Positions 3,977 to 27,421 of a DNA stretch of 32,000 nt are shown here, piece after piece. Position 1 is the stretch's first letter. Every line of letters starts with the position of its first letter. Source of the stretch: Propionibacterium freudenreichii subsp. freudenreichii (GTDB lineage Bacteria; Actinomycetota; Actinomycetes; Propionibacteriales; Propionibacteriaceae); NCBI RefSeq assembly GCF_000940845.1, contig NZ_CP010341.1:1440001-1472000 (forward strand). The letters are read 5' to 3'. Position numbers and translations under genes: made by a program. The notes beneath the pieces are model-generated. The model worked only from the letters and a program-made list of their open reading frames with translations. It searched no databases and was not told the origin of the DNA.

Positions 3977-4957
3977 ATGACCGACACCGCCATCAGCCAG
4001 GACCTGTGGGCCGACGAGATCCATGACCTCGCGCGCAGCCGGGACGCCGTGATCCTGGCCCACAACTACCAATCACCGCAGATCCAGGACGTGGCCGACC
4101 ACGTGGGTGATTCGCTCGCCCTGTCCCGCATCGCCGCCGAGGCAACCGCTTCGACCATCGTCTTCGCCGGGGTCCACTTCATGGCCGAGACGGCCAAGCT
4201 GCTCTCCCCCGACAAGACCGTGCTGATCCCCGACGCCAACGCCGGCTGCTCGCTGGCCGATTCCATCACCGCCGAACAGCTGCGGGCCTGGAAGGCGGAG
4301 CATCCCGGTGCCGTGGTGGTCAGCTATGTCAACACGACCGCCGAGGTCAAGGCGGAGACCGACATCTGTTGCACCTCGTCCAATGCGGTCGAGGTCGTGG
4401 CGTCGATCCCCGAGGACCGCGAGATCCTGTTTTGCCCCGACCAGTTCCTGGGCGCGCACGTGCGACGCCAAACGGGCCGCGAGAACATCCACGTCTGGCT
4501 TGGCGAATGCCATGTGCATGCCGGCATCTCCCCCGATGAGCTCATCGCCAGGGTGCACGACCACGCCGACGCCGAACTGTTCGTGCATCCCGAGTGCGGC
4601 TGCACCACCACGGCGCTGTGGTTGGCCGGCCGCGGTGACCTGCCCGCCGGGCGGACCAAGGTGCTGTCCACCGGCGGAATGCTCGATGCCGCACGCACCA
4701 CCCAGGCCCCCGAGGTGCTGGTCGCCACCGAGGTGCACATGCTGCACCAACTGCGCCAGGCCAACCCGCAGGCGACCTTCACGCCGGTGAACCCCCGCGC
4801 AACATGCCCCTATATGGACATGATCACCCCCCAGAAGCTGCTCGACTGCCTGCGCGGGGGCCACGACGAAGTGACGATTGACCCGGCGATCGCCGAGCGG
4901 GCCCGGGCCAGCGTCGAGCGAATGATCTCCATCGGGAACGCGGGACGGGGCGAATGA
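3977..4957 (+). CDS. nadA: Quinolinate synthase
   Basis: The ORF-track frame starts at 3377, but the homologous part begins at ATG 3977 ([11 protein letters not shown]...AVILAHNYQ), preceded by GAGGAAG. Motifs [24 protein letters not shown] are typical of NadA. 326 aa. Confidence 0.92.
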
Positions 4958-7677: not shown

Positions 7678-9066
<1,389 letters not shown>

Positions 9067-9251
9067 TGTTGCTCCTCTGGTTGCCCGGGGCGGGCCCCGG
9101 TCACGTCCCGATACCTGGCTGGCATCGGATGGACGGCCGCCGGGATTCCGCGGCCGCTTCCCCAATCATGCCCGAGTGCGCCATAATCGGCTCCCGCTCT
9201 CAGGGGCGCGGACGGGCCATCGTCCGGCCCCCGCCGGACCGGACTCCTAGT

Positions 9252-9299
9252 TGAGAACGATTTGCACATGGGAACGACTCTTATCTAGAATCATTCTCA
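9252..9299 (+). promoter_or_regulatory. Candidate Zur-repressed promoter: two Zur-box-like palindromes over -35/-10, apparently leaderless
   Basis: TGAGAACGATTTGCA (9252-9266) and CTAGAATCATTCTCA (9285-9299) match the actinobacterial Zur consensus TGAAAATCATTTTCA at 12/15 and 11/15. TTGCAC (9262-9267) and TAGAAT (9286-9291) sit 18 nt apart. TAGAAT ends 7 nt before the znuA ATG (9299). Confidence 0.55.
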
Positions 9300-10246
9300 T
9301 GAACTTCACGCCGCGTACACGGCTCTCGAGATGGGCCGTCGGGCTTGTTCTCGGAGCACTCATCGTCCCACTTGCCGCCTGTTCAACGCCTTCGTCATCC
9401 AGTAGCGCGTCGGCCGGCAAGCTCAATGTCGTCACTGCCTTCTATCCCTTCGAATTCGTCAGCCAGCGGGTTGCCGGGGACCATGCCAATGTCAGCTCGC
9501 TGACGGCCCCGGGCGCCGAGCCCCATGACCTGGAGCTCACCCCGAAGCAGACCGCGTCCATCGGGGCGGCCGACCTGGTGGTCTACCAGACGGGATTCCA
9601 GTCGGCAGTTGACCAGGCGATCAAGCAGAGCACGCCGAAGCATGCCGTGGACGTGGCCAGCATCGTGAGCCTGCAGGCGCCCCAGGGCACCGTCGACCTC
9701 GGCGATGGCGACGATGACCAGTACACCAAGGATCCGCACGAATGGCTCGACCCCACCAACGTCGAGACCATCACCAACGCGGTGCGTGACCAGCTCAGCA
9801 CCATTGACCCGTCCCACAAAGGCGATTACGAGGCGAACGCCGCCAAGCTGGTGGCCGACCTCCAGGGCGTGGACAACAGCTACAAGACCTCGTTGAGCAC
9901 CTGCACCCAGAAGACCTTCATCACCACCCATGCCGCCTTCGGCTACATGGCGCGACGCTACGGCCTCAACCAGATCGGTATCTCCGGGCTCTCGCCCGAC
10001 GAGGAGCCCTCGCCGACCCGCATCGCCAAGGTGCAGGACCTGGCCAAGCAGAACAATGTGACCACGATCTTCTACGAGACGCTGATCTCACCGAAGGTGG
10101 CCGAGTCGATTGCCGGTGACCTGCACCTGAAGACCGATGTGCTCGATCCGCTGGAGGGCATCACCGACAAGTCCCGTGGCAGCGATTACCTGCAGGTGAT
10201 GGACTCGAACCTGACGGCCCTGAAGACCGCCAACGGCTGTTCGTGA
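9299..10246 (+). CDS. znuA: Metal (probably zinc) ABC transporter substrate-binding lipoprotein, ZnuA/TroA family
   Basis: The ORF track starts at TTG 9251. I prefer ATG 9299 (MNFTPRTRLSRWAVGLVLGALIVPLAACS), which gives a lipoprotein signal peptide with lipobox LAAC. Cluster A-I SBP motifs (EPHDLELTP, DPHEWLDP, HAAFGYMARRYGL). Confidence 0.85.
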   Translation: MNFTPRTRLSRWAVGLVLGALIVPLAACSTPSSSSSASAGKLNVVTAFYPFEFVSQRVAGDHANVSSLTAPGAEPHDLELTPKQTASIGAADLVVYQTGFQSAVDQAIKQSTPKHAVDVASIVSLQAPQGTVDLGDGDDDQYTKDPHEWLDPTNVETITNAVRDQLSTIDPSHKGDYEANAAKLVADLQGVDNSYKTSLSTCTQKTFITTHAAFGYMARRYGLNQIGISGLSPDEEPSPTRIAKVQDLAKQNNVTTIFYETLISPKVAESIAGDLHLKTDVLDPLEGITDKSRGSDYLQVMDSNLTALKTANGCS

Positions 10247-10267
10247 CCCCATCATCCCCATGAGCTG

Positions 10268-10304
10268 GTGAGCTCGCCTGCACTCCTCCCGCAGGCGGGC
10301 TCAC
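10268..10304 (+). other. Intercistronic RNA hairpin between znuA and znuC
   Basis: GTGAGCTCGCCTGC (10268-10281) pairs with GCAGGCGGGCTCAC (10291-10304). 14 bp including one G-U pair, 9-nt loop, no U tract. Confidence 0.4.
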
Positions 10305-10340
10305 TGCGCTGTCCACTACCCGAATCGAGAACGCACACAT

Positions 10341-11129
10341 ATGCCCGACAACCAACCCGTGATCTCGTGTGAGGACCTGTCGGTGACCCTCGAGGGCCAC
10401 CAGATCCTCTTCGATATCGACGCCGAAGTTCATCGCAACGAAACCGTCGCCCTGCTCGGGGCCAACGGCTCCGGCAAGACCACCCTGGTACGCGCCCTGC
10501 TGGGGCTCATTCCCATTTCCGGGGGCACCGCCGAACTGTTCGGCACTCCCCTGTCGCAATTCAAGGACTGGAACCGACTTGGCTATGTGCCCCAGCGGGG
10601 GCATTCCCAGGTGGCCAATGCCACGGTGCGCGAGGTGGTCGCCACCGGGCGGCTGGCCAATCGCCACTTCTTCTCGCGCATGCACAAGCAGGACCGCGAT
10701 GCGGTCGACACGGCCCTGCGACGCGTCGAGTTGAGCCATCGTGCCGGTGATCCCCTGTCGGTGCTGTCCGGCGGACAACAGCAGCGCGCACTCATCGCCC
10801 GGGCGCTGGCCAGCGAGGCCGAGCTGCTCATCCTGGACGAGCCGCTGGCCGCGCTCGACATCCCCACCCAGGAATCCCTGGCCCGGCTGTTCGAACGCCT
10901 GAAGTCTGACGGACTGTCGATGTTGGTGATCCTCCATGAGCTGGGCCCGATGGAGCGGCTCATCGATCGCAGCATCATGATCCAACTGGGCCACAAGATC
11001 TACGACGGGCCGCTGATGGCGGGTCCCGCCATTGATTCGGGCCACCACCATCCCGCGCCGATCGGCGCCGACCAGGCCGTCATCAGCGGCCCCGAGATGC
11101 GTCGTCCGCACCTGACCAAGGAGGCCTGA
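10341..11129 (+). CDS. znuC: Metal ABC transporter ATP-binding protein
   Basis: 262 aa. Walker A GANGSGKTT, signature LSGGQQQR, Walker B LLILDEP. Confidence 0.9.
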   Translation: MPDNQPVISCEDLSVTLEGHQILFDIDAEVHRNETVALLGANGSGKTTLVRALLGLIPISGGTAELFGTPLSQFKDWNRLGYVPQRGHSQVANATVREVVATGRLANRHFFSRMHKQDRDAVDTALRRVELSHRAGDPLSVLSGGQQQRALIARALASEAELLILDEPLAALDIPTQESLARLFERLKSDGLSMLVILHELGPMERLIDRSIMIQLGHKIYDGPLMAGPAIDSGHHHPAPIGADQAVISGPEMRRPHLTKEA

Positions 11130-11130
11130 G

Positions 11131-12138
11131 GTGAGCGTCTTCGCACTTGCCTTCATGCAGCGGGCGTTGATCGCCGCGTTGCTGTCCGGATTCATGTCGC
11201 CCGCAGTGGGCACCTACATCGTGCAGCGCAAGTTGAGCCTGCTGGGCGACGGGCTGGGTCACGTGGCCATCGCCGGCGTCGGCCTGGCGCTGTTGACCGG
11301 CTGGGCACCGACACCGGTGGCCATCGTGATCTGCGTGGTGGGCGCGGTGTCCATCGAGTTGCTGCGCCAGAGCGGACGGGCCCCCGCGGATGTGGGGCTG
11401 GCCATCCTGTTCTATGGCGGACTGGCCACCGGCGTCCTGCTTGCGGGAATCTCCGGTCAGGGCACCGGGGTGTTGTCGCAGTACCTGTTCGGGTCGCTGA
11501 CCACGGTGAGCATGTCCGATGTGGCGCTGGTGGCCGTGATGGCCGCCATCGTGATCATCCTCTCGTTGGGGCTGTCACCGCAGCTGTTCGCGGTGTGCGC
11601 CGACGAGGAGTTCGCACGCAGCCAGGGCCTGCCGGTTCGGGCCCTGGAGATCTGCATCGTGGTGATGGCCTCGGTGACGGTGGCCGTGTCGATGCGCACC
11701 GTGGGCCTGCTGCTCGTCAGCGCGCTGATGGTCGTACCGGTGGCCGCCGCCAACAACCTGGTGACCGGCTTCTACCGCTCGATGTTCACCGCGATCGGCA
11801 TCGGTGTGGTGGTGAGCTTCATCGGCGTCACCGGCTCCTACTACTGGAACACCGCCTCGGGCGCCACCATCGTGGTCAGTGCCATCGCGGTCTTCGCCCT
11901 GAGCTGGCCGGTGGGATCGCTGCTGAACAGGCGCCGCCTGGCCCGTTCCCAGCGCATCCCCGATCCCGAGACGGCCCGCGACAACGCCGCCGAAGTCGCC
12001 GCACACCGTCCGGTCGACCCGTCCGAACTGGTGGGCGAGGACGGCAACCACCCCCGAATCCAGCATGGCGACCATGTGGACTATCTGCACGGGAACCATC
12101 GCCATGCCCCACATGGAGATCATTTCGATGAACACTGA
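11131..12138 (+). CDS. znuB: Metal ABC transporter permease with a His-rich C-terminal tail
   Basis: 335 aa, multi-TM ABC-3 family permease. GTG start 1 nt after the znuC stop. Nine His in the last 30 residues. Confidence 0.85.
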   Translation: MSVFALAFMQRALIAALLSGFMSPAVGTYIVQRKLSLLGDGLGHVAIAGVGLALLTGWAPTPVAIVICVVGAVSIELLRQSGRAPADVGLAILFYGGLATGVLLAGISGQGTGVLSQYLFGSLTTVSMSDVALVAVMAAIVIILSLGLSPQLFAVCADEEFARSQGLPVRALEICIVVMASVTVAVSMRTVGLLLVSALMVVPVAAANNLVTGFYRSMFTAIGIGVVVSFIGVTGSYYWNTASGATIVVSAIAVFALSWPVGSLLNRRRLARSQRIPDPETARDNAAEVAAHRPVDPSELVGEDGNHPRIQHGDHVDYLHGNHRHAPHGDHFDEH

Positions 12139-12616
12139 ACGGGACCCGGGTCCCGAGCAGGAAACCACCCCCGCCGCCCCACGTTCCACCATGGGACGCG
12201 AGGAGGCCCCCCGCCCCCGACCCCGCCAGACCAAGCAGCGTCAGCTGATCAGCCGGATGCTGGAGAACCAATCCCGCTTCCGCACCGCGCAACAGCTCCA
12301 TGCCGATCTGCGCGCCGCTGGAGACAGCGCCAGCCTGGCCACGGTCTATCGGGTGCTCCAATCGTTGGCGGAGCACGGCGAGGTCGACACCTGGCGCACT
12401 CCCGGCGGCGAGCTGGCCTTCCGGCACTGCTCGCCGACCCACCACCACCACCTCATCTGCTACCGCTGTGGGCGCACCGTCGAGATCGACGCCGGACCCG
12501 CGGAGCAGTGGGCGTCCCGGGTTGCCGCCGAGAACGGCTTCATCCACGCCGAGCACCAGGTGGAGGTCTACGGGCTGTGCCCCCAGTGCGCCGCCGAGAT
12601 CGGCGAGGGCCACTGA
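12128..12616 (+). CDS. zur: Fur-family metalloregulator, probably Zur
   Basis: Winged-helix region (RFRTAQQLHADL...SLATVYRVLQSL). Metal-site motifs HHHHLICYRCGRTVEI and CPQC. Start uncertain: ATG 12128 overlaps the znuB end by 11 nt; ATG 12191 (MGREE) gives 141 aa; the ORF track starts at 12065. Confidence 0.8.
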   Translation: MNTERDPGPEQETTPAAPRSTMGREEAPRPRPRQTKQRQLISRMLENQSRFRTAQQLHADLRAAGDSASLATVYRVLQSLAEHGEVDTWRTPGGELAFRHCSPTHHHHLICYRCGRTVEIDAGPAEQWASRVAAENGFIHAEHQVEVYGLCPQCAAEIGEGH

Positions 12617-12625
12617 TCTCTGCCC

Positions 12626-12665
12626 CCGCGCCTTCGCGGTACCCGGGTGCCCCATGGCCCGGGTA
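12626..12665 (+). terminator. Tandem GC hairpins after zur (possible operon terminator)
   Basis: CCGCG-CCTT-CGCGG (12626-12639) followed by TACCCGGG-N10-CCCGGGTA (12640-12665). No clear U tract. Confidence 0.3.
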
Positions 12666-12675
12666 TCCCGGTAGT

Positions 12676-12868
12676 GTTGGGGGCACAAACTTCCATCGCC
12701 GAAGGGAAGCCGGTGAGATGCCGGCGCTGACGCGCAACCGTGAGCCGGGCCATCTGGCCTGATGAGCCGGGATACTTCGCGAGATGGTCTGGCCACAACC
12801 CGCTGCCGCGGTCGCAGTGGAGGCGGACATCCGTCGTCCCTGCTCGCAGCGAGAGAGGACGACGTGCC
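12676..12868 (+). promoter_or_regulatory. Cobalamin (B12) riboswitch with RBS-sequestering expression platform
   Basis: The core GAAGGGAAGCCGGTGAGATGCCGGCGCTGACGCGCAACCGTGAG (12701-12744) parallels the conserved E. coli btuB leader core (AGGGAATCCAGTGCGAATCTGGAGCTGACGCGCAGCGGTAAG, from memory). B12-box-like GAGCCGGGATACTTCGC at 12764-12780. Hairpin CGTCGTCC (12832-12839) / GGACGACG (12857-12864) covers the GAGAGAGGA Shine-Dalgarno just before ATG 12869. Possible -10 TAGTGT at 12672-12677. Confidence 0.85.
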
Positions 12869-13543
12869 ATGTCCACGTCACACGGAGCATCCCCGGGATC
12901 GCTCATCCCCCTGGCGCCCGGCCCATCGGTGCCGCGCACCTTTGCACCCGCCCCGCGGCTCCTGCCGCGCTCCGTGCGGGTGGCGGGGTCCCCTGTCACC
13001 ATCCTGACCGACCGGGCCGGCACACCGACCCCGCTGGAACGCACCCCACGGCCCTTCACCCGGGCAGAACTCGAGGTCGCCTGGGTGCAGTGGTCCGCGC
13101 TGGATCCACGACTCGCCGACACGGTGTTGGTGCTGGCACACACCGCACTGAGGTGGGACGAGGCCCGGGCACTGACCGTTGACGACCTGGTGCCCCATGC
13201 CCATCAGATCATCGTGCGCGCGCACTGCCCGGGCCGGGTCCGACGCCCGCTGGCACCGGCCCTGCACCGGCGGGTGCCGGTGTCGTTGCGCATCCGCCAG
13301 GCGTTGCGCAGGCTCGCTTCCACGCCGGGACCCCGGGGACTGGTGTTCACCGACCCGGACGGTGCCCCACTGCGTCGCGCCACGGTGCGGCGGGTCCTCG
13401 ACTGGTACCACACCGCCCCCGGCCATGGCCTGGCCGATCTTCCGGCCACTGCGGCCCAGTTGTGGGCCGACGACGGCACGCCCCGCGCGGTCGTGGCCGA
13501 GTGGAGCGGGCGTCCGGCCTGGTCGTCGCGACCACGGGGCTGA
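12869..13543 (+). CDS. Tyrosine recombinase (phage integrase) catalytic-domain-like protein, catalytic residues degenerate; possibly a relic
   Basis: LVLAHTALRWDEARALTVDDL resembles box I with its Arg. RRVPVSLRIRQALRRL and LVFTDPDGAPLRRATV follow the integrase pattern. The HxLRH box reads ADLPATAAQ, GH reads GR, and the frame ends before any catalytic Tyr. No N-terminal core-binding domain. I counted about 84% G/C at third codon positions, like genuine genes here. Confidence 0.45.
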   Translation: MSTSHGASPGSLIPLAPGPSVPRTFAPAPRLLPRSVRVAGSPVTILTDRAGTPTPLERTPRPFTRAELEVAWVQWSALDPRLADTVLVLAHTALRWDEARALTVDDLVPHAHQIIVRAHCPGRVRRPLAPALHRRVPVSLRIRQALRRLASTPGPRGLVFTDPDGAPLRRATVRRVLDWYHTAPGHGLADLPATAAQLWADDGTPRAVVAEWSGRPAWSSRPRG

Positions 13544-13683
13544 GCCCCCGGACTCCTCCACTGCTGGGACCCGTCGCCCGGCCTCCCCGGCGCCGGATTC
13601 CCTTGCAGCGGACCTTTGCAGCCGGGCCCCTGTCCCGCTGGGCCAGCACCACCGTGCGGCGCCTTCGACGTGCACACGCCAGC

Positions 13684-13714
13684 GAGCCCCGGCGGGTGGG
13701 ACCGGCCGGGGCTC
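13684..13714. terminator. Hairpin between convergent recombinase-like ORF and pduP
   Basis: GAGCCCCGGC (13684-13693) / GCCGGGGCTC (13705-13714), 10-bp stem, 11-nt loop, no U tract on either strand. Confidence 0.2.
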
Positions 13715-13756
13715 ACGTCCATCCCGACGAGGCACGGGACGGCTGGTGGGGCGTGA

Positions 13757-15166
13757 TCAGCGAATGTTGAGACCGCTCTTCAACACGCAACGACGCTTGC
13801 GGGCGAAGCAGCGGGCCGAGGTCAGGCCCTCACCGGTCGGGCCGGCGATGGTGAAGGTGGGAAAGCCCTCACCGTCGATGCCGATGCCGTTGTACGAGGG
13901 ACCGTTCTTCACGAAGATCGTGGTCTGGATGAGCTTGCCCATCTTGGTCAGCGCGTTGACATTCGACGAGTGCATCACGGCCGTGTGACGGTTGCCGTGC
14001 TCCACCTCCACCGCCTTGTCGATGGCGGTGTCGACATCGGGCATCCGCACGATCGGCAGGATCGGCATCATCAGCTCCACCTGCACGAACGGATGGTCGA
14101 AGGGCACCTCGCAGATCAGCAGGCGCGTGTCCTTGGGTGCGCTCAGGCCCACCTCGGAGGCGAGCTGGGCGGCCGGCTTGCCCACATAGGCGGCGTTGGC
14201 ATGCTGGCCCTTGGTCACCAGGGCGGCCAGCTTGTCCATCACGGCGCGATCCTTCAACTCGAAGCAGCCGTGCTTGAGCATCTCGAACTTGAGCAGGTCG
14301 GCAATGGAATCAACCGCCAGCACCTCCTTCTCGGCGGTGCACGGGAGGTTGTTGTCGAAGCTGGCCCCGTCCACGATGTCCCGGGCCGCCTTGGCGATGT
14401 CGGCGGTGTCATCCACCACGGCCGGCGGGTTGCCGGCACCGGCACCGATGGCCTTCTTGCCGCTGGACAGCACGGCCTTGACGATGCCCGGGCCGCCGGT
14501 TGCCACGAGCATGCGCACCTTCTCGTGCGACATCATGGCGTTGGTGTTGTCGATGGAGGGCTCCTCGACCGTCACCACCAGGTTGGCGGGCGCACCCGCA
14601 GCGGCGAGCGCGCGGTTGATCTTGCGCACCAGCCACAGGGTGATCTTCTTGGCACGCGGATGGGGGCTGAAGACCACCGCGTTGCCGGCCGCGAGCATGC
14701 CGATCGTGTTGTTGATCACCGTCTCGGTGGGATTCGTCGTGGGGGTGATCGCCCCGATCACGCCGAAGGGCGAGAACTCGACGGTGGTCAGGCCGTCGTC
14801 ACCCGACCAGGCCTCGGTGATGATGTCCTCGGTGCCCGGTGTGTACAGGGCGGCGTAGCGATTCTTGAGGATCTTGTGGGGCACATTGCCCATCCCCGTC
14901 TCCTCGACGGTGGCGGTGGCCATGTACTCCAGGTTGTCGGGCTCGCTGGCCACGTCGCGGATCGCCTGGATGAACCGGTTGCGGTCGCGCAACGAGCAGT
15001 CCATGTACTGGCGCCACGCCACATCGGCGGCGTCCACCGCACTGTTCATGTCGGTGAAGATGCCGTCGGTGCCGCTGGGGGCATCGGTGCCGGAATCCTG
15101 GCGTGAGATGACCTCACGCACCGTTTCACGAACGACCTGCTGGATTAGTTCTGGGCTGATGGTCAT
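13757..15166 (-). CDS. pduP: CoA-acylating propionaldehyde dehydrogenase
   Basis: The ORF track extends to 15259. ATG at 15164-15166 overlaps the pduO stop as ATGA and gives MTISPELIQQVVRETVREVI, an encapsulation-peptide-like helix. EutE/PduP catalytic motif NNLPCTAEKE. 469 aa. Confidence 0.9.
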   Translation of the reverse strand: MTISPELIQQVVRETVREVISRQDSGTDAPSGTDGIFTDMNSAVDAADVAWRQYMDCSLRDRNRFIQAIRDVASEPDNLEYMATATVEETGMGNVPHKILKNRYAALYTPGTEDIITEAWSGDDGLTTVEFSPFGVIGAITPTTNPTETVINNTIGMLAAGNAVVFSPHPRAKKITLWLVRKINRALAAAGAPANLVVTVEEPSIDNTNAMMSHEKVRMLVATGGPGIVKAVLSSGKKAIGAGAGNPPAVVDDTADIAKAARDIVDGASFDNNLPCTAEKEVLAVDSIADLLKFEMLKHGCFELKDRAVMDKLAALVTKGQHANAAYVGKPAAQLASEVGLSAPKDTRLLICEVPFDHPFVQVELMMPILPIVRMPDVDTAIDKAVEVEHGNRHTAVMHSSNVNALTKMGKLIQTTIFVKNGPSYNGIGIDGEGFPTFTIAGPTGEGLTSARCFARKRRCVLKSGLNIR

Positions 15167-16254
15167 GACCGACTCGCTTCCTTGGCTCGCGACATAGCAA
15201 AACTGGCAATGGTGACGTCCTGGTCGACCGTGCCGCCGGAGACACCAATGCCCCCGCACAGCACGCCGTCGACAAAGACCGGCAGGCCTCCCCCGAAGAC
15301 GACCACGCGTCCGTCGTTGGAGTTCTGGATTCCGTGGAGCTCCGCACCCGGCAGGGACGCTTCGCTGAGATCGGCGGTCGGCTGTTTGAAGGCCGCTGCC
15401 GTGAATGCCTTGTTCGACGCCAGGTCAAGGCTGCCGAGCAGGGAATCCTCCATCCGGTGCAGGAGCATCAGATGGCCGCCGGCATCGACACCGGCAAAAA
15501 CAATGGGTACGCCCAGCTCGGCACCCCGGGACTGGGCTGCCGCCGCCATCGCCTGGAGCACGTCCAGGTCGTAGCGGGCGAGCCCGAACCGGGTGGCGGG
15601 GTCGGCCGTGGTCGAGACATCGGCCGGCACGAAGCCGCTGGCGGGGCTCCACGCGACACGGGGCTGGGGCGACTGCGCCGCCAGGTGCTTCTCGACGACG
15701 GACCTCACCAGGCCCTCGAGCCGTGCCACGTCGAAGCGGTGCTCGGCCACGCGTGCCAACGAGTACAGGGCATCCGACAGCCGATTCACATAGCGGATCA
15801 GCTCGGGGCGCACCGGACGCGACTCGGCGGCGGTCAACATGCGTCGCTCGGCACGTCGGGTGACGGTGCGCGCGCGGTGGAGCGCTGCGGAGACCAGGTC
15901 GCGACCGGGAACCACGAAGTTGCGCTGTGGTCCGGTCTCGGCCATCGAATCATCGATGAGTCGTTCCAGGTCTGCGACGTCGTCGGGGCTGATCGTATTG
16001 GCGATCACGGCGCGCCCGGCCTCGTCGCTGGCCAACTCGGCGGCGGCGACGAACAGGCGCTGTTGGATGTGCTGGAGGGCGGCGCGCATGTCGGGGTCCT
16101 CGACGCGCGCCTTCGCCTCGCCGATGGTGGCGTTGGCCTCGTCCAGGGTTCCGTAGGCCTCAACGGTCGGGTCCTGCTTGGGCACCCTGGTGCCGCCGAA
16201 CAAGCCGGTGGTTCCCTTGTCCCCGGTGCGGGTATAGATCGCTGCCATCGTCAC
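15163..16254 (-). CDS. pduO: PduO-type ATP:cob(I)alamin adenosyltransferase fused to a DUF336/GlcG-like domain
   Basis: AAIYTRTGDKGTTGLFGG...EAYGTLDEANA is the PduO-type ATR N-terminus. The C-terminal half (GVPIVFAGVDAGGHLM...GGLPVFVDGVLCGGIGVSGG) is DUF336-like. Start is GTG 16254 (GTGA overlap with pduN) or ATG 16248. Confidence 0.9.
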   Translation of the reverse strand: MTMAAIYTRTGDKGTTGLFGGTRVPKQDPTVEAYGTLDEANATIGEAKARVEDPDMRAALQHIQQRLFVAAAELASDEAGRAVIANTISPDDVADLERLIDDSMAETGPQRNFVVPGRDLVSAALHRARTVTRRAERRMLTAAESRPVRPELIRYVNRLSDALYSLARVAEHRFDVARLEGLVRSVVEKHLAAQSPQPRVAWSPASGFVPADVSTTADPATRFGLARYDLDVLQAMAAAAQSRGAELGVPIVFAGVDAGGHLMLLHRMEDSLLGSLDLASNKAFTAAAFKQPTADLSEASLPGAELHGIQNSNDGRVVVFGGGLPVFVDGVLCGGIGVSGGTVDQDVTIASFAMSRAKEASRS

Positions 16255-16523
16255 GCCGGTCCGATCTCGACGGTGTCGACGATTCCGACGATGGTCGAAT
16301 CGATCGGTGCGTCCTTGCGATCGGCGGCGAATCGCGCCGAGCTGCCCTTCGTGACGATCACGATCGAGCCCGTGCCAGCTCCCACGGTGTCCACCGCGAT
16401 CTCCGGACGTCCGACCGGCTCCTGCTGGAGCCCGATCTGCTCGATGAGCATCAGCTTGAAGCCGACCAGCCGTTCGTCCTTGCTGGTGGAGACCACCGTG
16501 CCGCGTACCTTTGCCAAGAACAT
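16251..16523 (-). CDS. pduN: BMC vertex pentamer protein (EutN/CcmL family)
   Basis: 90 aa. MFLAKVRGTVVSTSKDERLVGFKLMLI...GIVD is typical of BMC-P. Starts 1 nt after the upstream stop. Confidence 0.9.
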   Translation of the reverse strand: MFLAKVRGTVVSTSKDERLVGFKLMLIEQIGLQQEPVGRPEIAVDTVGAGTGSIVIVTKGSSARFAADRKDAPIDSTIVGIVDTVEIGPA

Positions 16524-16524
16524 G

Positions 16525-17409
16525 TCACACCACCACCGTGATCTGGATATTTCGGGAGGCCGCCATGTCCCGGGCGGCGGCCGTCACCTTCGTGTCGGGC
16601 CGGATGGCCAGGCATGAACCCGGGTCCAACTTCTGCACCACGCCCTGGCTGATCAGCTTCAGGGTGCTGGGCGCGCCCGTGACCGGTCCGCGCGGCGCCG
16701 GCTCACGCCGGGTATCGGTCACGCGCGTCCCCCGGTGGGAGACGCCGCCACCGTGCGGCCGGGGAGCCGGTGCCGGGATCGCGGGGGCGGCGCATGCGGC
16801 AAGGGCCTGTGCCGGGATTCCCTGGGCGATCAGCGCGTCCTTGTGTGCCGCGTCGCGACGGTCGAAGGCCGCCAGCGCCGTGCGTGCGAGCGCCTGGCTT
16901 CGGGCCAGCCTCACCCCGAAGGAGGTCAGGGCGGTCAGGTTGGCGCGCAACAGCTCCGCGTAACCGGAGGGCATCTCGGGATAGATCGAACGCTTGGGCG
17001 CCTCGTCGGGGCTGACCGCGGTGCTTGAGGCGACGACCAGGCGGTTGCTCATGATGAACTCACTGAACAGGTTGCTGGCCAGGCAGTCCGCGATCCCGTG
17101 GGACACCTTGGCGGCGACGTTGGCCGTCAGGGTCGGCGCGATGAGCATCTGGTGGTTGGCCACCAGGTGGTCGTCGACCTGTGGGAGGCCCAGGGCCCCG
17201 ATCTTGTGCTGGTCGAGGATCCGGCGGGCGCTGGGGGTTTGCACCACGTCGAGGGCGACGCCCTCATCGGCCAGTGCGCGCAGGCCCCCGAGGCATTCGT
17301 CAAAGCCGAGCAGGCCGCCGGTGAAGACCACCAGCGCGCGACGGGGGGCGGGGGCGAGCAGTTCCACGAGCGTCTGCCGGATGATCGCCCTGAGTTGATC
17401 CGGATTCAT
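16525..17409 (-). CDS. PduM-position BMC-associated protein: N-terminal amphipathic helix, flavoprotein-like domain, Pro/Ala/Arg linker, small C-terminal domain
   Basis: 294 aa between eutJ and pduN, the pduM slot in Lactobacillus/Listeria-type pdu operons. N-terminus MNPDQLRAIIRQTLVELL. MLIAPTLTANVAAKVSHGIADCLASNLF resembles the CoaC/Dfp-type flavoprotein motif (IAPATAN..AK.A.G.AD.L). ATGA overlap with eutJ. Confidence 0.5.
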   Translation of the reverse strand: MNPDQLRAIIRQTLVELLAPAPRRALVVFTGGLLGFDECLGGLRALADEGVALDVVQTPSARRILDQHKIGALGLPQVDDHLVANHQMLIAPTLTANVAAKVSHGIADCLASNLFSEFIMSNRLVVASSTAVSPDEAPKRSIYPEMPSGYAELLRANLTALTSFGVRLARSQALARTALAAFDRRDAAHKDALIAQGIPAQALAACAAPAIPAPAPRPHGGGVSHRGTRVTDTRREPAPRGPVTGAPSTLKLISQGVVQKLDPGSCLAIRPDTKVTAAARDMAASRNIQITVVV

Positions 17410-25293: not shown

Positions 25294-25578
25294 TCACTTC
25301 TGGTCCGCGAACGACGGGAGGATCTTCTCCACGTCGGCGTGCGGGCGCGGGATCACGTGGACGGACACGAGTTCGCCAACGTTCTGGGCGGCCACGGCAC
25401 CGGCATCGGTGGCGGCCTTGACCGCGCCGACGTCACCGCGCACCAGCACGGTCACCAGGCCGGAACCCACGCGCTGGCTTCCGATAAGCGTCACATTGGC
25501 CGACTTGACCATTGCATCAGCAGCTTCGACGGCCGGGACAAAACCCTTTGTCTCCACCATCCCCAGGGCATCTTGCAT
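25294..25578 (-). CDS. pduA: BMC-H shell hexamer protein, first gene of the operon
   Basis: [29 protein letters not shown]...VHVIPRP. ATG 25578 is preceded by AAGGAG with 6-nt spacing. The ORF track starts at 25614. Confidence 0.9.
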
Positions 25579-25728
25579 TCCGAACTCCTTCATTGGATTT
25601 GGTCGGATCGCCATTCACAGGTCCGGCGACCCTGCCGGGCAATACCCCGAGACTAGATGCGTGGATAGGGTGAAAATCGCACATCGACTGTCCAATTTCC
25701 GCGCACCTGCGCGAGCCTCCGACAACAC

Positions 25729-25757
25729 GAAAGTGCAAGTCCCGACAAGAAAGTGCA
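25729..25757. promoter_or_regulatory. Direct repeat GAAAGTGCA x2 (20-bp periodicity) in the pduA / pduU-fragment divergent control region
   Basis: GAAAGTGCA at 25729-25737 and 25749-25757. The nearby palindrome GCGCAccTGCGC lies at 25701-12. Candidate regulator-binding sites; no cognate regulator gene is in the window. Confidence 0.3.
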
Positions 25758-25997: not shown

Positions 25998-27421
25998 GGG
26001 TGTAGGTCGGCCGGGCGCGTCGGTCCGCAGATAGACGTCGAGGTCTCCCGACGATGGAGGTTCCTACGCCATCCATCCGAAAGACCTCGACGTGTCCGAC
26101 GCTACCCCGCCGGCCGGCTTCGGCCGCCCTGACCTGACCGCCTTCGCTCGACTCGACGGCCTCGGTCTGAGCGTGACCGGACAACGACTTGAACCGGATC
26201 GTGCGGTCCTCGCGTGCCGCGTGGTGGAACCAGATCAGTGGTGCCGACGGTGCGGCAGCGAAGGCGCTGCTCGTGACACCGTGATCCGGCGGTTGGCCCA
26301 CGAGCCGCTGGGCTGGCGACCGACCGTGCTGGAAGTTGTAGTGCGCCGCTACCGCTGTGCCGACTGCGGACACGTGTGGCGCCAAGACACCAGCGCCGCG
26401 GCGGAGCCACGCGCGAAGCTCTCGCGCACCGGGCTGCGGTGGGCGCTGGAAGGGATCGTGGTCGCACACCTCACCGTCGCCCGTGTCGCCGAGGGACTCG
26501 GGGTCGCGTGGGACACCGCCAACAACGCGGTCCTGGCTGAAGGCAAGCGGCTGCTGATCAACGACCCCACGCGGTTTGAGGGCGTGAAGGTCATTGGCGT
26601 CGATGAGCACGTCTGGCGCCACACCAGGCGTGGCGACAAGTACGTCACCGTGATCATCGACCTCACCCCGGTCCGCGATGGCGCCGGCCCAGCAAGGCTG
26701 CTGGACATGGTCGAGGGCCGGTCGAAGGCGGCGTTCAAGACCTGGCTCGCCGACCGCGACGACGCCTTCCGTGACGCGGTCGAGGTGGTCGCGATGGACG
26801 GCTTCACCGGGTTCAAGACCGCCGCTGCAGAGGAGATCCCGGACGCGGTCACGGTGATGGATCCCTTCCACGTCGTGCGCCTGGCCGGTGACGCCCTCGA
26901 CAGGTGCCGGCGCCGGGTCCAACTCGCGATCCACGGGCACCGTGGGTTCAGGGACGACCCGCTCTACAAGTCGCGGCGCACGCTGCACACCGGCGCGGAC
27001 CTGCTCACCGACAAGCAGAGCGACAGGCTACGCGCGCTGTTCGTTGATGACGCTCACGTCGAGGTCGAGGCGACCTGGGGTGTCTACCAGCGCATGATCG
27101 CCGCCTATCGCCACGAGGACCGGCAACGTGGCCGCGAGCTCATGGAGAAGCTGATCACCGACCTCAGCGCCGGCGTCCCCAAGGTGCTCACCGAGCTCAC
27201 CACCCTGGGCCGGACCCTGAAGAAGCGAGCCGCTGACGTGCTCGCCTACTTCGAACGACCCGGCACCAGCAACGGGCCGACCGAGGCGCTCAACGGACGG
27301 CTCGAACACCTGCGCGGCTCCGCACTCGGGTTCCGCAACCTGACCAACTACATCGCCCGAAGCCTGCTCGAGACCGGCGGCTTCAGACCCCAACTCCTAC
27401 ACCCCCGATTGGGATGAGCCC
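25982..27421 (+). mobile_element. ISL3-family insertion sequence (~1.44 kb); end coordinates within a few nt
   Basis: Imperfect terminal inverted repeats: GGGTCTTCTCAGATGAGGGTGTAGG (25982-26006) versus the reverse complement of CCTACACCCCCGATTGGGATGAGCCC (27396-27421). They share GGGTGTAGG and a GG(G)(C)TC terminus reminiscent of the ISL3 GGCTCTT ends. One transposase gene. No target-site duplication found. Confidence 0.75.
26092..27417 (+). CDS. ISL3-family transposase
   Basis: 441 aa. N-terminal zinc-finger pattern (CRRCG...CADCGH). DDE region with VIGVDEH, VIIDL, AMDGFTGFK, DPFHVV. C-terminal NGPTEALNGRLEHLRGSALGFRNLTNY is typical of ISL3. The stop lies inside the right IR. Confidence 0.9.
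   Translation: MSDATPPAGFGRPDLTAFARLDGLGLSVTGQRLEPDRAVLACRVVEPDQWCRRCGSEGAARDTVIRRLAHEPLGWRPTVLEVVVRRYRCADCGHVWRQDTSAAAEPRAKLSRTGLRWALEGIVVAHLTVARVAEGLGVAWDTANNAVLAEGKRLLINDPTRFEGVKVIGVDEHVWRHTRRGDKYVTVIIDLTPVRDGAGPARLLDMVEGRSKAAFKTWLADRDDAFRDAVEVVAMDGFTGFKTAAAEEIPDAVTVMDPFHVVRLAGDALDRCRRRVQLAIHGHRGFRDDPLYKSRRTLHTGADLLTDKQSDRLRALFVDDAHVEVEATWGVYQRMIAAYRHEDRQRGRELMEKLITDLSAGVPKVLTELTTLGRTLKKRAADVLAYFERPGTSNGPTEALNGRLEHLRGSALGFRNLTNYIARSLLETGGFRPQLLHPRLG

Follow-up and report, generated by a model that had tools for sequence, protein, structure and literature searches.

The chromosome of Propionibacterium freudenreichii subsp. freudenreichii DSM 20271 carries, between its znuACB-zur genes and pdu locus 2, a compact unit made up of a cobalamin riboswitch and an open reading frame (ORF) for a protein of 224 amino acids (aa). 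We analysed this unit within a stretch of 32,000 nucleotides (nt), referred to here as the window (NCBI RefSeq assembly GCF_000940845.1, contig NZ_CP010341.1, positions 1,440,001 to 1,472,000 of the forward strand; position 1 is its first letter). The ORF, RM25_1258 (RM25_RS06210, AJQ90972.1; 12869-13543 on the + strand, CP010341 1452869-1453543), is annotated 'Phage integrase', its product is identical to the NCBI entry 'site-specific integrase [P. freudenreichii]', and it stands at the 3' end of pdu locus 2. Riboswitch and ORF are wired together and conserved as a unit that is linked to pdu and eut operons, and the protein, which is under purifying selection, has lost the catalytic tyrosine (Tyr) of the recombinases from which it derives.

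The order of genes in the window is glyS on the - strand; znuA, znuC, znuB and zur on the + strand; the riboswitch and the 224-aa ORF, also on the + strand; and a convergent pdu operon on the - strand. Read from the side of the ORF, this operon comprises pduP, pduO-GlcG, pduN, pduM, an eutJ-like gene, genes for shell proteins, pduGH, pduCDE, pduB and pduA (25294-25614), and past pduA there are an ISL3 transposase gene (26092-27417) and then ilv genes. The features on which the argument depends are as follows, with SD for Shine-Dalgarno sequence and W, X and Y for segments of the leader that are described below.

12065-12616, + strand: zur, a Fur-family regulator gene, last gene of znuACB-zur and 5' neighbour of the riboswitch-ORF unit throughout the genus Propionibacterium
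12640-12666, + strand: GC-rich hairpin 3' of the zur stop (12616), with an 8-bp stem UACCCGGG/CCCGGGUA by folding; probably the zur terminator
12672-12677, + strand: candidate -10 hexamer TAGTGT (actinobacterial TANNNT type) of the riboswitch-ORF unit
12688-12792, + strand: cobalamin riboswitch aptamer core, from RF00174, our model R1 and covariation
12800-12826, + strand: P13-like hairpin of W (CCGCU, 12800-12804) with X (GGCGG, 12822-12826), from alignments and folds
12801-12851, + strand: alternative 'ON' fold, obtained by folding with SD and AUG forced unpaired
12831-12864, + strand: SD-sequestering 'OFF' hairpin, CCGUCGUCC (12831-12839) with GGACGACG (12857-12864), from folds and compensatory changes
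12851-12859, + strand: SD GAGAGAGGA, inside the 12831-12864 hairpin
12869-13543, + strand: ORF of 224 aa with ATG at 12869-12871, a derivative of a tyrosine-recombinase catalytic domain, from Foldseek and alignments
13684-13714, no strand assigned: GC-rich hairpin GAGCCCCGGC...GCCGGGGCUC in the gap between ORF and pduP, from folding; candidate bidirectional terminator
13757-15166, - strand: pduP (propionaldehyde dehydrogenase), last gene of the pdu locus 2 operon; the start is that of the published annotation, and the longest ORF reaches 15259

A cobalamin riboswitch had been proposed at this site from the letters of the sequence (the original prediction), and it is real. When the whole window was scanned with cmscan, the single match above its gathering threshold (GA) was RF00174 Cobalamin at 12651-12798 (+), with 35.9 bits against a GA of 31.5 and E = 9.4e-6 (E = 4.7e-7 when 12400-14000 alone was scanned). 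The motifs on which the proposal was founded all lie between 12704 and 12779, namely GGGAA (12704-12708), the P4 hairpin GCCGG-UGAGAUG-CCGGC (12709-12725, strands 12709-12713/12721-12725), an invariant L5 region CUGACGCGCAACCGUGAG (12727-12744) and a B12-box-like segment GAGCCGGGAUACUUCG (12764-12779), the last being a variant box that agrees with about 12/18 positions of the consensus in PMC5644110. P2 is formed by 12693-12697/12783-12787, one position out of register in the window relative to the alignment columns of the other leaders, and P3 by 12701-12704/12775-12778. The short distance between core and B12 box that had been remarked on is accounted for by P6, a short hairpin (12744-12763) that fills the roughly 20 nt between L5 and the box; the large peripheral extension of P6 seen in the classical class I of adenosylcobalamin (AdoCbl) riboswitches is absent, and the architecture is class-II-like.

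A covariance model of the aptamer core, which we call R1 and whose E-values are rough, scores 87.8 bits in the window (12689-12792) and 81-112 bits directly 5' of homologs of the ORF in 14 further lineages. Across 10-15 leaders the core is near-invariant, with the consensus GGGAAGCCGGUGAGAnnCCGGCRCUGACGCGCAACCGUGAG. Six leaders, the first ones, were too few for RNAalifold, which returned a poor structure; 10-15 sequences were required. In the model-fitted alignment, which is biased towards the structure of the model, 97.1% of cells were paired and 13/25 pairs had changed on both sides, where shuffles gave 6.5 ± 1.5 and 0/500 of them reached as many, and pairing fell to 27-48% in slid controls. 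A MAFFT alignment gave 92.6% of cells paired and 14 double-changed pairs against 7.6 in shuffles. The covarying helices are P2, P3 and P6; P4 and the helix 12727-12731/12766-12770 are uninformative in this respect because neither ever varies. Three relatives score 39.2, 32.9 and 31.5 bits with RF00174 and another 29.7 bits, just under the GA, and in four relatives the top Rfam family is RF01482 AdoCbl (49.2, 44.6, 38.6 and 33.8 bits, all below its GA of 50). By these scores the aptamer, which is compact, comes closest in several relatives to the small AdoCbl type.

The riboswitch-ORF unit probably has its own promoter. A TANNNT hexamer occurs exactly once within 75 nt upstream in each of 12/12 leaders, always 27-37 nt before the GGAAGCC anchor, and since the conserved -10 box of the window is at 12672-12677 we place the start of the RNA near 12685. 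The part of the Rfam alignment that is labelled 'P1' (12651-12670) overlaps the hairpin that follows zur and lies 5' of this -10 box. As its pairing in the window is full of non-canonical pairs and it lies upstream of the conserved box, we discounted it as part of the riboswitch RNA; 12651-12670 is probably outside the transcribed riboswitch. Set beside other cobalamin riboswitches, the unit therefore has modest Rfam scores and an Rfam 'P1' that is probably untranscribed.

Downstream of the aptamer, four interacting segments are found in 12/12 leaders: W (12800-12804), X (12822-12826), Y (12831-12839) and Z (12857-12864), of which Z overlaps the SD and is followed by AUG 12869. W and X form a P13-like hairpin with the near-invariant loop CUGYCGCGnnnGCA. 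X also pairs with Y in an anti-sequestor hairpin (-6 to -15 kcal/mol in 12/12 leaders), X and Y covarying between lineages; in the window, X pairs with CCGUC at 12831-12835 in the ON fold. Y in turn pairs with Z to sequester the SD (-12 to -24 kcal/mol in 12/12 leaders), and this helix too has compensatory changes between lineages, for example GUGAUGUCA/UGACAUCAU in the L001 group. When SD and AUG were forced to be single-stranded, the same long hairpin formed in 12/12 leaders, 0.6-14 kcal/mol above the minimum free energy. Its base pairs the invariant CGCUGC (12801-12806) with the invariant GCAGCG (12846-12851), X:Y sits on top, and SD and AUG are free. These folding energies are equilibrium estimates; the long hairpin is a plausible kinetic 'ON' state because it is complete before Z has been transcribed.

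The burial of the SD in a hairpin (12831-12864) before ATG 12869 was thus correctly foreseen, and it extends to all 12 leaders. Because this hairpin is conserved with compensatory changes, the switch is wired to RM25_1258, again as had been supposed, and what it regulates is the start codon of the 224-aa ORF together with its ribosome-binding site. A merely constitutive SD hairpin was considered and rejected in view of the conserved competing fold in 12/12 leaders, and a consensus terminator scan of the window found no T-tract terminator. Docking of L5 onto L13 is an established mechanism of cobalamin riboswitches. Candidate partners for such a kissing contact are the CGCG of L5 (within 12731-12737) and that of the P13-like loop (12807-12810), both of them invariant, and by analogy the contact would be ligand-dependent.

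The product of the ORF had been described as recombinase-like, which holds for its fold but not for its activity as a recombinase. The Pfam family Phage_integrase (PF00589) matches the window protein weakly (17.1 bits, E = 0.0047, below the GA of 27.1), NCBIfam has no meaningful match for the 224-aa ORF, and most of the relatives of 281-299 aa carry a precomputed PF00589 match, P0012 being without one. A profile of the family searched against the PDB matches the structures of Tn1549 integrase, a XerC-like protein, XerD and XerA. In an AlphaFold2 model of the window protein, residues 1-47 are predicted to be disordered and residues 62-215 to be folded, with a predicted local distance difference test score mostly of 85-97 (52-76 around residues 101-140) and a predicted template modelling (TM) score of 0.64. 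Foldseek matched this model with XerA (5hxy, E = 4.8e-5), Tn1549 integrase (6emy), XerH, the integrases of P2 and lambda, and Cre, and at lower ranks with the repressor MrpR (8a0a, E = 0.04, TM 0.46) and SroF (9rgl, E = 0.008). The window protein is thus predicted to keep the fold of a recombinase catalytic domain.

The family occurs in two forms. Proteins of 281-299 aa have a SAM-like core-binding domain and a catalytic domain, and those of 193-224 aa, which include the window protein, have the catalytic domain only; neither the 224-aa window protein nor the forms of 193-200 aa have the core-binding domain, and only a vestige of its last helix still aligns (SVPRTFAPAPRLLPRSVR vs SVRRYRASLSSFFGWLR). 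Every ORF linked to the riboswitch ends 0-14 residues past W-x-G and before the catalytic Tyr, the last residues before the stop being WLG, WMGHSLITG, WMGPTRLAA or WSGRPAWSSRPRG. The nearest Tyr-bearing relatives (P0016-P0019; 360 aa, about 45-47% identity) have an arm-binding domain, a TK..KGR hairpin and HDLRH, and continue with GHESIATTNRYLH. Of the Tyr-bearing relatives, only L084 had its neighbourhood read; it belongs to an integrative element of an actinomycete, whose genes include FtsK/TraB-like, WhiB, RepSA, Xis and Int. A remnant of the Tyr-coding segment was found neither in the window (tblastn with the C-terminus of P0016/P0019, best E = 0.07) nor at any Tyr-less locus. We also considered a frameshifted or split integrase, whether SSV-like or with an island in the int gene, and rejected it, since tblastn recovers the Tyr-bearing C-terminus only in full-length relatives.

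The remaining catalytic positions have fared unequally. Arg-I is invariant in the Tyr-less family (R95 in the window protein) and Arg-II is kept in all Tyr-less lineages except P. freudenreichii, which has ADLPAT against xDLRHT elsewhere. In the window protein, therefore, HxxR is replaced by ADLP; the neighbouring His is lost, and the GH position reads GR. The Lys of the beta-hairpin is Arg or absent throughout the Tyr-less family, and His-II in the relatives is variable (H, V, N, Q or T). On these residues, we believe that the protein can no longer recombine DNA. An exhaustive profile hidden Markov model search of 1.84 billion representatives delimits the family to about four clusters at 50% identity (442, 379, 244 and 224 bits), after which come ordinary integrases of 360-380 aa. 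In passing, we observed that at four metagenomic loci (L097 1473-2245, L098 4284-5056, L100 7001-7773 and L101 75-847) the tblastn match to a full-length, Tyr-bearing relative falls into two pieces that overlap and lie in different frames, which could be a frameshift, a pseudogene or a sequencing artefact common to related contigs.

The pairing of riboswitch and recombinase-like gene in the original prediction is refined in a second respect: it is no oddity of one strain, and the unit is family-wide and sits at B12-dependent microcompartment operons. A word search with the single sequence returned its own-species cluster only, which marks the limit of its sensitivity, and was followed by tblastn on PduP-anchored loci and by a profile search. 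The former recovered homologs of 42-46% identity in one unbroken frame at L010, L008, L009 (Micropruina), L001 and L005 (P. acidifaciens), 3' of pduP and on the opposite strand; the latter brought in P. australiense and P. ruminifibrarum as well as several metagenomic lineages, and a metagenome scan with context look-ups added L099, L104 and L121-L123. The riboswitch lies immediately 5' of the Tyr-less gene in 15/15 Propionibacteriaceae lineages with upstream DNA (the window, L001, L005, L008, L009, L010, L081, L082, L083, L085, L099, L104, L121, L122 and L123), a count in which many loci are metagenome or metagenome-assembled genome (MAG) contigs and the lineages are phylogenetically non-independent. 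The loss from DSM 20271 of a canonical B12 gene that once followed the riboswitch was rejected as an explanation, since the relatives bear the same recombinase-like gene behind the same riboswitch. R1 had no match at the loci of Tyr-bearing relatives (L084, L094-L098, L100, L101), at more distant integrases (L106-L120) or at eleven Propionibacteriaceae pdu loci without the Tyr-less gene. On one low-coverage metagenome contig (L092 607-1161), the C-terminal 156 residues of a P. acidifaciens-type gene are fused to an unrelated N-terminus with no riboswitch, which is a rearrangement or an assembly chimera.

In ten lineages (the window, the L010/L008 group, L009, L083, L085, L099, L104, L121, L122 and the P0012 contig) a convergent pduP-pduO-pduN-pduM follows the unit directly, with gaps of about 25-490 nt, and in two (L001 and L005/L089) an FtsX-type ATP-binding cassette (ABC) transporter comes first and then pduP. 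In P. australiense (L081) a major facilitator superfamily (MFS) gene is followed by a convergent eut operon. The contig of L123 is too short to show what lies downstream, and pduP or eut is adjacent in 13/14 lineages with enough flanking DNA. The 5' neighbours vary, with zur in Propionibacterium and a PemK-like gene, a tRNA gene, or a DUF4440 or NPCBM gene elsewhere; therefore the constant partners are the riboswitch and the B12-dependent operon. The eut operon of L081 (10977-20900) is complete, with eutA, eutB, eutC, shell genes, an aldehyde dehydrogenase gene, eutQ and eutH where P. freudenreichii has pdu, and the pdu operon of P. australiense lies elsewhere (L003) with no riboswitch match within 6 kb. 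In one Propionibacterium sub-clade the genes of an ABC ATPase and an 855-aa FtsX/MacB-type permease lie on the riboswitch strand between the Tyr-less gene and pduP (L001 7542-11100, L005 7522-10098, L089/L091 9621-12198) and might be co-transcribed with the Tyr-less gene. At L083 a tRNA gene (4566-4638) stands about 130 nt 5' of the riboswitch on the same strand, recalling tRNA-linked integration sites.

The gap between ORF and pduP is itself of note. Perfect palindromes with stems of about 27 bp fill it in L010, L102 and L099, and palindromes occur at L010 7399-7472, L102 7607-7683, L099 934-1059, L008 7399-7601 and L085 3644-3938. They are built on a recurring GGAACCGUCCCC/GGGGACGGUUCC motif, present in several copies in L008 and L085, and could be a family of elements like repetitive extragenic palindromes, or bidirectional terminators.

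Purifying selection acts on the ORF, which is no pseudogene in decay. The ratio of non-synonymous to synonymous rates (dN/dS, Nei-Gojobori) is 0.21 between L010 and L008, 0.25 between L001 and L005, and 0.24 between two P. freudenreichii strains, where 18 synonymous and 11 non-synonymous changes were counted and, by our own estimate, about 43 of the latter would be expected at the synonymous rate. Only such close pairs were used, because the values for distant lineages (0.4-0.8) are unreliable with synonymous sites saturated. In the P. freudenreichii cluster, all full-length members listed are 224 aa, or 204 aa at an alternative annotated start, forms that span >250 contigs, and three shorter entries are partial or MAG calls. 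The GC content by codon position (0.76/0.63/0.83) is typical of coding sequence in the frame of the ORF. A comparison of the window (8869-17409) with the locus L087, from a second P. freudenreichii strain, also brought out 0-1 differences over glyS-znuACB-zur, the riboswitch and the platform, and then a divergent block from the first few codons of the ORF through pduO (ORF 4.3%, pduP 1.4%, pduO 2.4%, the ORF-pduP intergenic region about 5-6% plus a 16-nt indel at 13590), after which pduN and pduM are again nearly identical. This block looks like a tract imported by recombination, one of whose edges falls at the junction of riboswitch and ORF.

Known cobalamin riboswitch regulons comprise the synthesis and transport of B12, isozymes that do without it and a small number of regulatory RNAs. 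A target outside that range had been claimed for the riboswitch of RM25_1258, and full-text searches found no paper that pairs a cobalamin riboswitch with an integrase or recombinase. Published lists of riboswitches in P. freudenreichii hold cbiL, cobD/cbiB, mutA and cbiM only. In its core sequence, four-way junction and compact P6, the riboswitch is like the other cobalamin riboswitches (CL00101: RF00174, RF01482), and like them it would act on translation through an SD-sequestering helix 3' of the aptamer. It differs from known members in that its target is a derivative of an integrase and not cob/cbi, btu, cobalt-transport, metE, nrd, mutA or a regulatory RNA, and in that a relay from P13-like hairpin to anti-sequestor to sequestor takes the place of a single P13 that bears the ribosome-binding site.

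Cobalamin riboswitches at microcompartment loci have precedents in Firmicutes, where a riboswitch-controlled regulatory RNA was reportedly described by Mellin in 2014. AspocR of the Listeria pdu locus is an antisense RNA to pocR, and EutX/Rli55 of the eut loci of Enterococcus and Listeria is a sponge for the antiterminator EutV. The unit described here shares with both a small B12 riboswitch at a pdu or eut locus and, presumably, the logic that the pathway is made only with its cofactor. Whereas the outputs of AspocR and EutX/Rli55 are non-coding RNAs, what is gated here is the SD and AUG of a protein gene under purifying selection; strong hairpins insulate the unit from the operon, in contrast to both, and control of pdu/eut would be exerted by the protein.

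The protein has its own precedents. MrpR (YopR, from phage SPbeta), whose fold is that of a recombinase, does not function as one and is a DNA-binding repressor (PMC10516654). The Tyr-less family resembles MrpR and SroF (phage phi3T) in having a recombinase-like fold without catalytic competence, and it may resemble them in binding DNA. MrpR, however, keeps both the core-binding and catalytic domains and the Tyr, which it needs for DNA binding; the Tyr-less family is without that C-terminal segment, and the P. freudenreichii form, unlike MrpR, is also without the core-binding domain. Furthermore, MrpR and SroF are repressors of phage lysogeny, whereas RM25_1258 is a chromosomal gene under a metabolite riboswitch. 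Common descent with them is not borne out (weak structural matches with E = 0.008-0.04, TM 0.43-0.46 and 11-13% identity, and no close kinship detectable in sequence), and domestication would be independent. The closest sequence relatives are instead the integrases of pSAM2-like integrative and conjugative elements (PF26003 + PF00589), whose order of core-binding and catalytic domains is shared by the 281-299 aa forms. Those integrases, unlike the Tyr-less family, carry an arm-binding domain at the N-terminus together with the beta-hairpin Lys, HxxR, GH and the Tyr; xis, rep and tra genes adjoin the one at L084, and no riboswitch is present at any Tyr-bearing relative examined. The riboswitch class is a known one and recombinase-fold repressors are precedented; the conserved combination of the two, and the way in which it is attached to microcompartment operons, seems not to have been described before.

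On balance we favour the view that a working cobalamin OFF-riboswitch gates a domesticated, non-catalytic protein with a recombinase fold, probably a DNA-binding regulator tied to pdu/eut. We prefer a B12-gated regulator of this kind because the platform regulates translation and the protein sequence is under selection; the OFF logic in vivo, the binding of DNA and the target genes we infer. In our model, the nascent leader would fold without B12 into the long hairpin, with GCUG:CAGC at its base and X:Y on top, so that SD and AUG 12869 would be free and the protein would be made. With B12, the aptamer, probably by way of the contact between L5 and the loop (CGCG 12807-12810), would lock W:X; Y, once released, would bind the SD strand Z, blocking translation. 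The protein would add a B12 gate to the expression of pdu/eut, for example as a repressor. More specifically, this could amount to a third, protein-based route in Propionibacteriaceae, in which a riboswitch-gated Tyr-less integrase binds DNA and shuts down or tunes pdu/eut without B12, a proposal that we make tentatively and consider rather less than even in its prospects. Dank et al. draw the boundary of pdu locus 2 at RM25_1258 and stress the lack of an annotated regulator near that locus, pocR being in the distant locus 1 (PMC8149966). In an RNA-seq study (PMC11494915), RM25_RS06210 is up-regulated aerobically at sampling point III, where cobamides are below detection, and the riboswitch-controlled cbiM/cbiN are up in the same aerobic comparison. 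The aerobic up-regulation of RM25_RS06210 fits an OFF-switch.

Several points weigh against this view. Ligand binding, switching and protein activity are computational predictions, and the L5-L13 contact lies beyond the reach of covariation because both partners are invariant. The RNA-seq result lends weak support, because 518 genes are up in that comparison. The P. freudenreichii form is the most eroded of the family, having lost the core-binding domain, Arg-II and the neighbouring His and scoring below the Pfam GA; because of this its capacity to bind DNA is uncertain, and in activity it may fall short of the 281-299 aa forms or differ from them. Both pduP (dN/dS 0.055) and pduO (0.13) are under stronger selection than the ORF. 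At least 11 Propionibacteriaceae pdu loci are without the riboswitch-gene unit within 6 kb of pduP, the unit of L082 (Propionibacterium sp.) is followed by recO with no microcompartment operon within 10 kb, and genes of regulators are not usually placed next to an operon's 3' end.

The alternatives differ in what they make of the protein. It could be functional and B12-gated without regulating pdu/eut, acting as an accessory or decoy of a true recombinase (in the excision, inversion or stability of an island) or with some other partner. Descent from the integrases of integrative elements would suit such a role, as would the invariance of Arg-I, the retention of Arg-II in all but P. freudenreichii, the tRNA gene immediately upstream in L083 and the variable DNA downstream in Propionibacterium (pdu; ABC genes and pdu; MFS gene and eut; recO), which is like that of an insertion hot spot. 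We nonetheless regard this as unlikely: no gene for a partner recombinase is conserved in the vicinity, a search of the loci identified no repeats of att type, the core-binding domain is missing from the short forms, and a role in recombination leaves the linkage to B12-dependent operons and the B12 sensor unexplained. Alternatively, the output might be RNA, with translation of the ORF protecting a transcript antisense to the convergent pdu genes, as in AspocR-like interference, and the amino acids incidental. The convergent arrangement, with gaps of about 25-130 nt to the pduP stop in many lineages, the absence of a T-tract terminator from the window and the gating of pdu/eut by B12 through riboswitch-controlled RNAs in Firmicutes are in keeping with this idea. 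Against it, the platform acts on SD and AUG and not on a terminator, the recombinase fold is retained, and a 4-kb ABC transporter separates the unit from pduP in L001, L005 and L089, with L082 having no microcompartment operon within 10 kb. We disfavour antisense read-through as the main output, and consider it very unlikely, because of the strong palindromic hairpins (L010, L102 and L099; in the window, the GC-rich hairpin at 13684-13714) and the selection at the level of amino acids (dN/dS 0.21-0.25).

Two further explanations would deprive the protein of a present role of its own. The unit could be a relic, a fragment of an integrase behind an orphaned riboswitch with neither now useful, and the eroded state of the P. 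freudenreichii protein (Pfam score below GA, catalytic residues lost, disordered N-terminus), the small size of the family (about four clusters at 50% identity) and the tendency of long ORFs to stay open by chance in high-GC genomes would all accord with decay. We hold this to be less probable still than the antisense output, given that different genera keep the unit free of frameshifts even where amino-acid identity is down to 42-46%, that dN/dS is far under 1 in three independent close comparisons, that compensatory changes and conserved alternative folds surround the SD and AUG of the ORF, that the promoter is conserved, and that the ORF is uninterrupted in all full-length members listed of the P. 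freudenreichii cluster. Least probable of all, and in our opinion very unlikely, is that the real target is the downstream FtsX/MacB-type ABC transporter, with the ORF a passenger first cistron and the transporter since lost from P. freudenreichii. An ABC ATPase and the 855-aa permease do follow the ORF on the same strand in L001, L005, L089 and L091, and one of the functions that have been reported in the neighbourhood of cobalamin riboswitches is ABC transport (PMC9600381). They do so in one Propionibacterium sub-clade only, whereas in ten other lineages, outgroup genera included, the ORF leads straight to pduP, and the gap from ORF to ATPase gene is about 290 nt as estimated from ORF translations. 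The transporter of L001, L005, L089 and L091 is also one that, on our own reading of its domain family, we take to be of neither the BtuCDF nor the ECF-CbrT type.

Some features of the wider neighbourhood deserve mention. ZnuB (11131-12138) has a long His-rich C-terminal tail (...HPRIQHGDHVDYLHGNHRHAPHGDHFDEH), and the longest zur ORF overlaps the 3' end of znuB. A perfect 12-nt inverted repeat (26035-26046/26082-26093) lies by the ISL3-family transposase gene (PF01610), directly 5' of the pdu promoter, so that the pdu locus has an integrase derivative at one end and an insertion sequence element at the other. Within the pdu promoter (25725-25757), two direct repeats (ACAMGAAAGTGCA twice; copies ACACGAAAGTGCA and ACAAGAAAGTGCA) stand 20 nt apart and about 110-140 nt 5' of pduA, and the window has no others (2 matches, where 0.64 would be expected). 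They may serve PocR or some other regulator as an operator, and nothing ties them to the RM25_1258 protein; an operator motif common to the riboswitch-ORF unit and the pdu promoter was sought and none was found, ACAMGAAAGTGCA being confined to 25725-25757.

P. freudenreichii is an industrial producer of B12 and propionate and a probiotic, and the protein described here is a concrete candidate for a regulator of its pdu locus 2 (PMC8149966). A conserved pseudo-recombinase under riboswitch control would add a class of targets to the cobalamin riboswitches and would clearly exemplify the domestication of a mobile-element integrase under the control of a metabolite. As the unit is compact (a leader of about 190 nt), natural and translational, it could serve as a B12 sensor part in high-GC hosts. 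Our observations suggest that Actinobacteria and Firmicutes, with similar small riboswitches and unrelated effectors, have met the same problem, that of not making B12-dependent microcompartments without B12. If our reading is true, the Propionibacteriaceae would hold at once a new class of riboswitch target, a new family of transcription factors derived from recombinases and the missing regulator of pdu locus 2.

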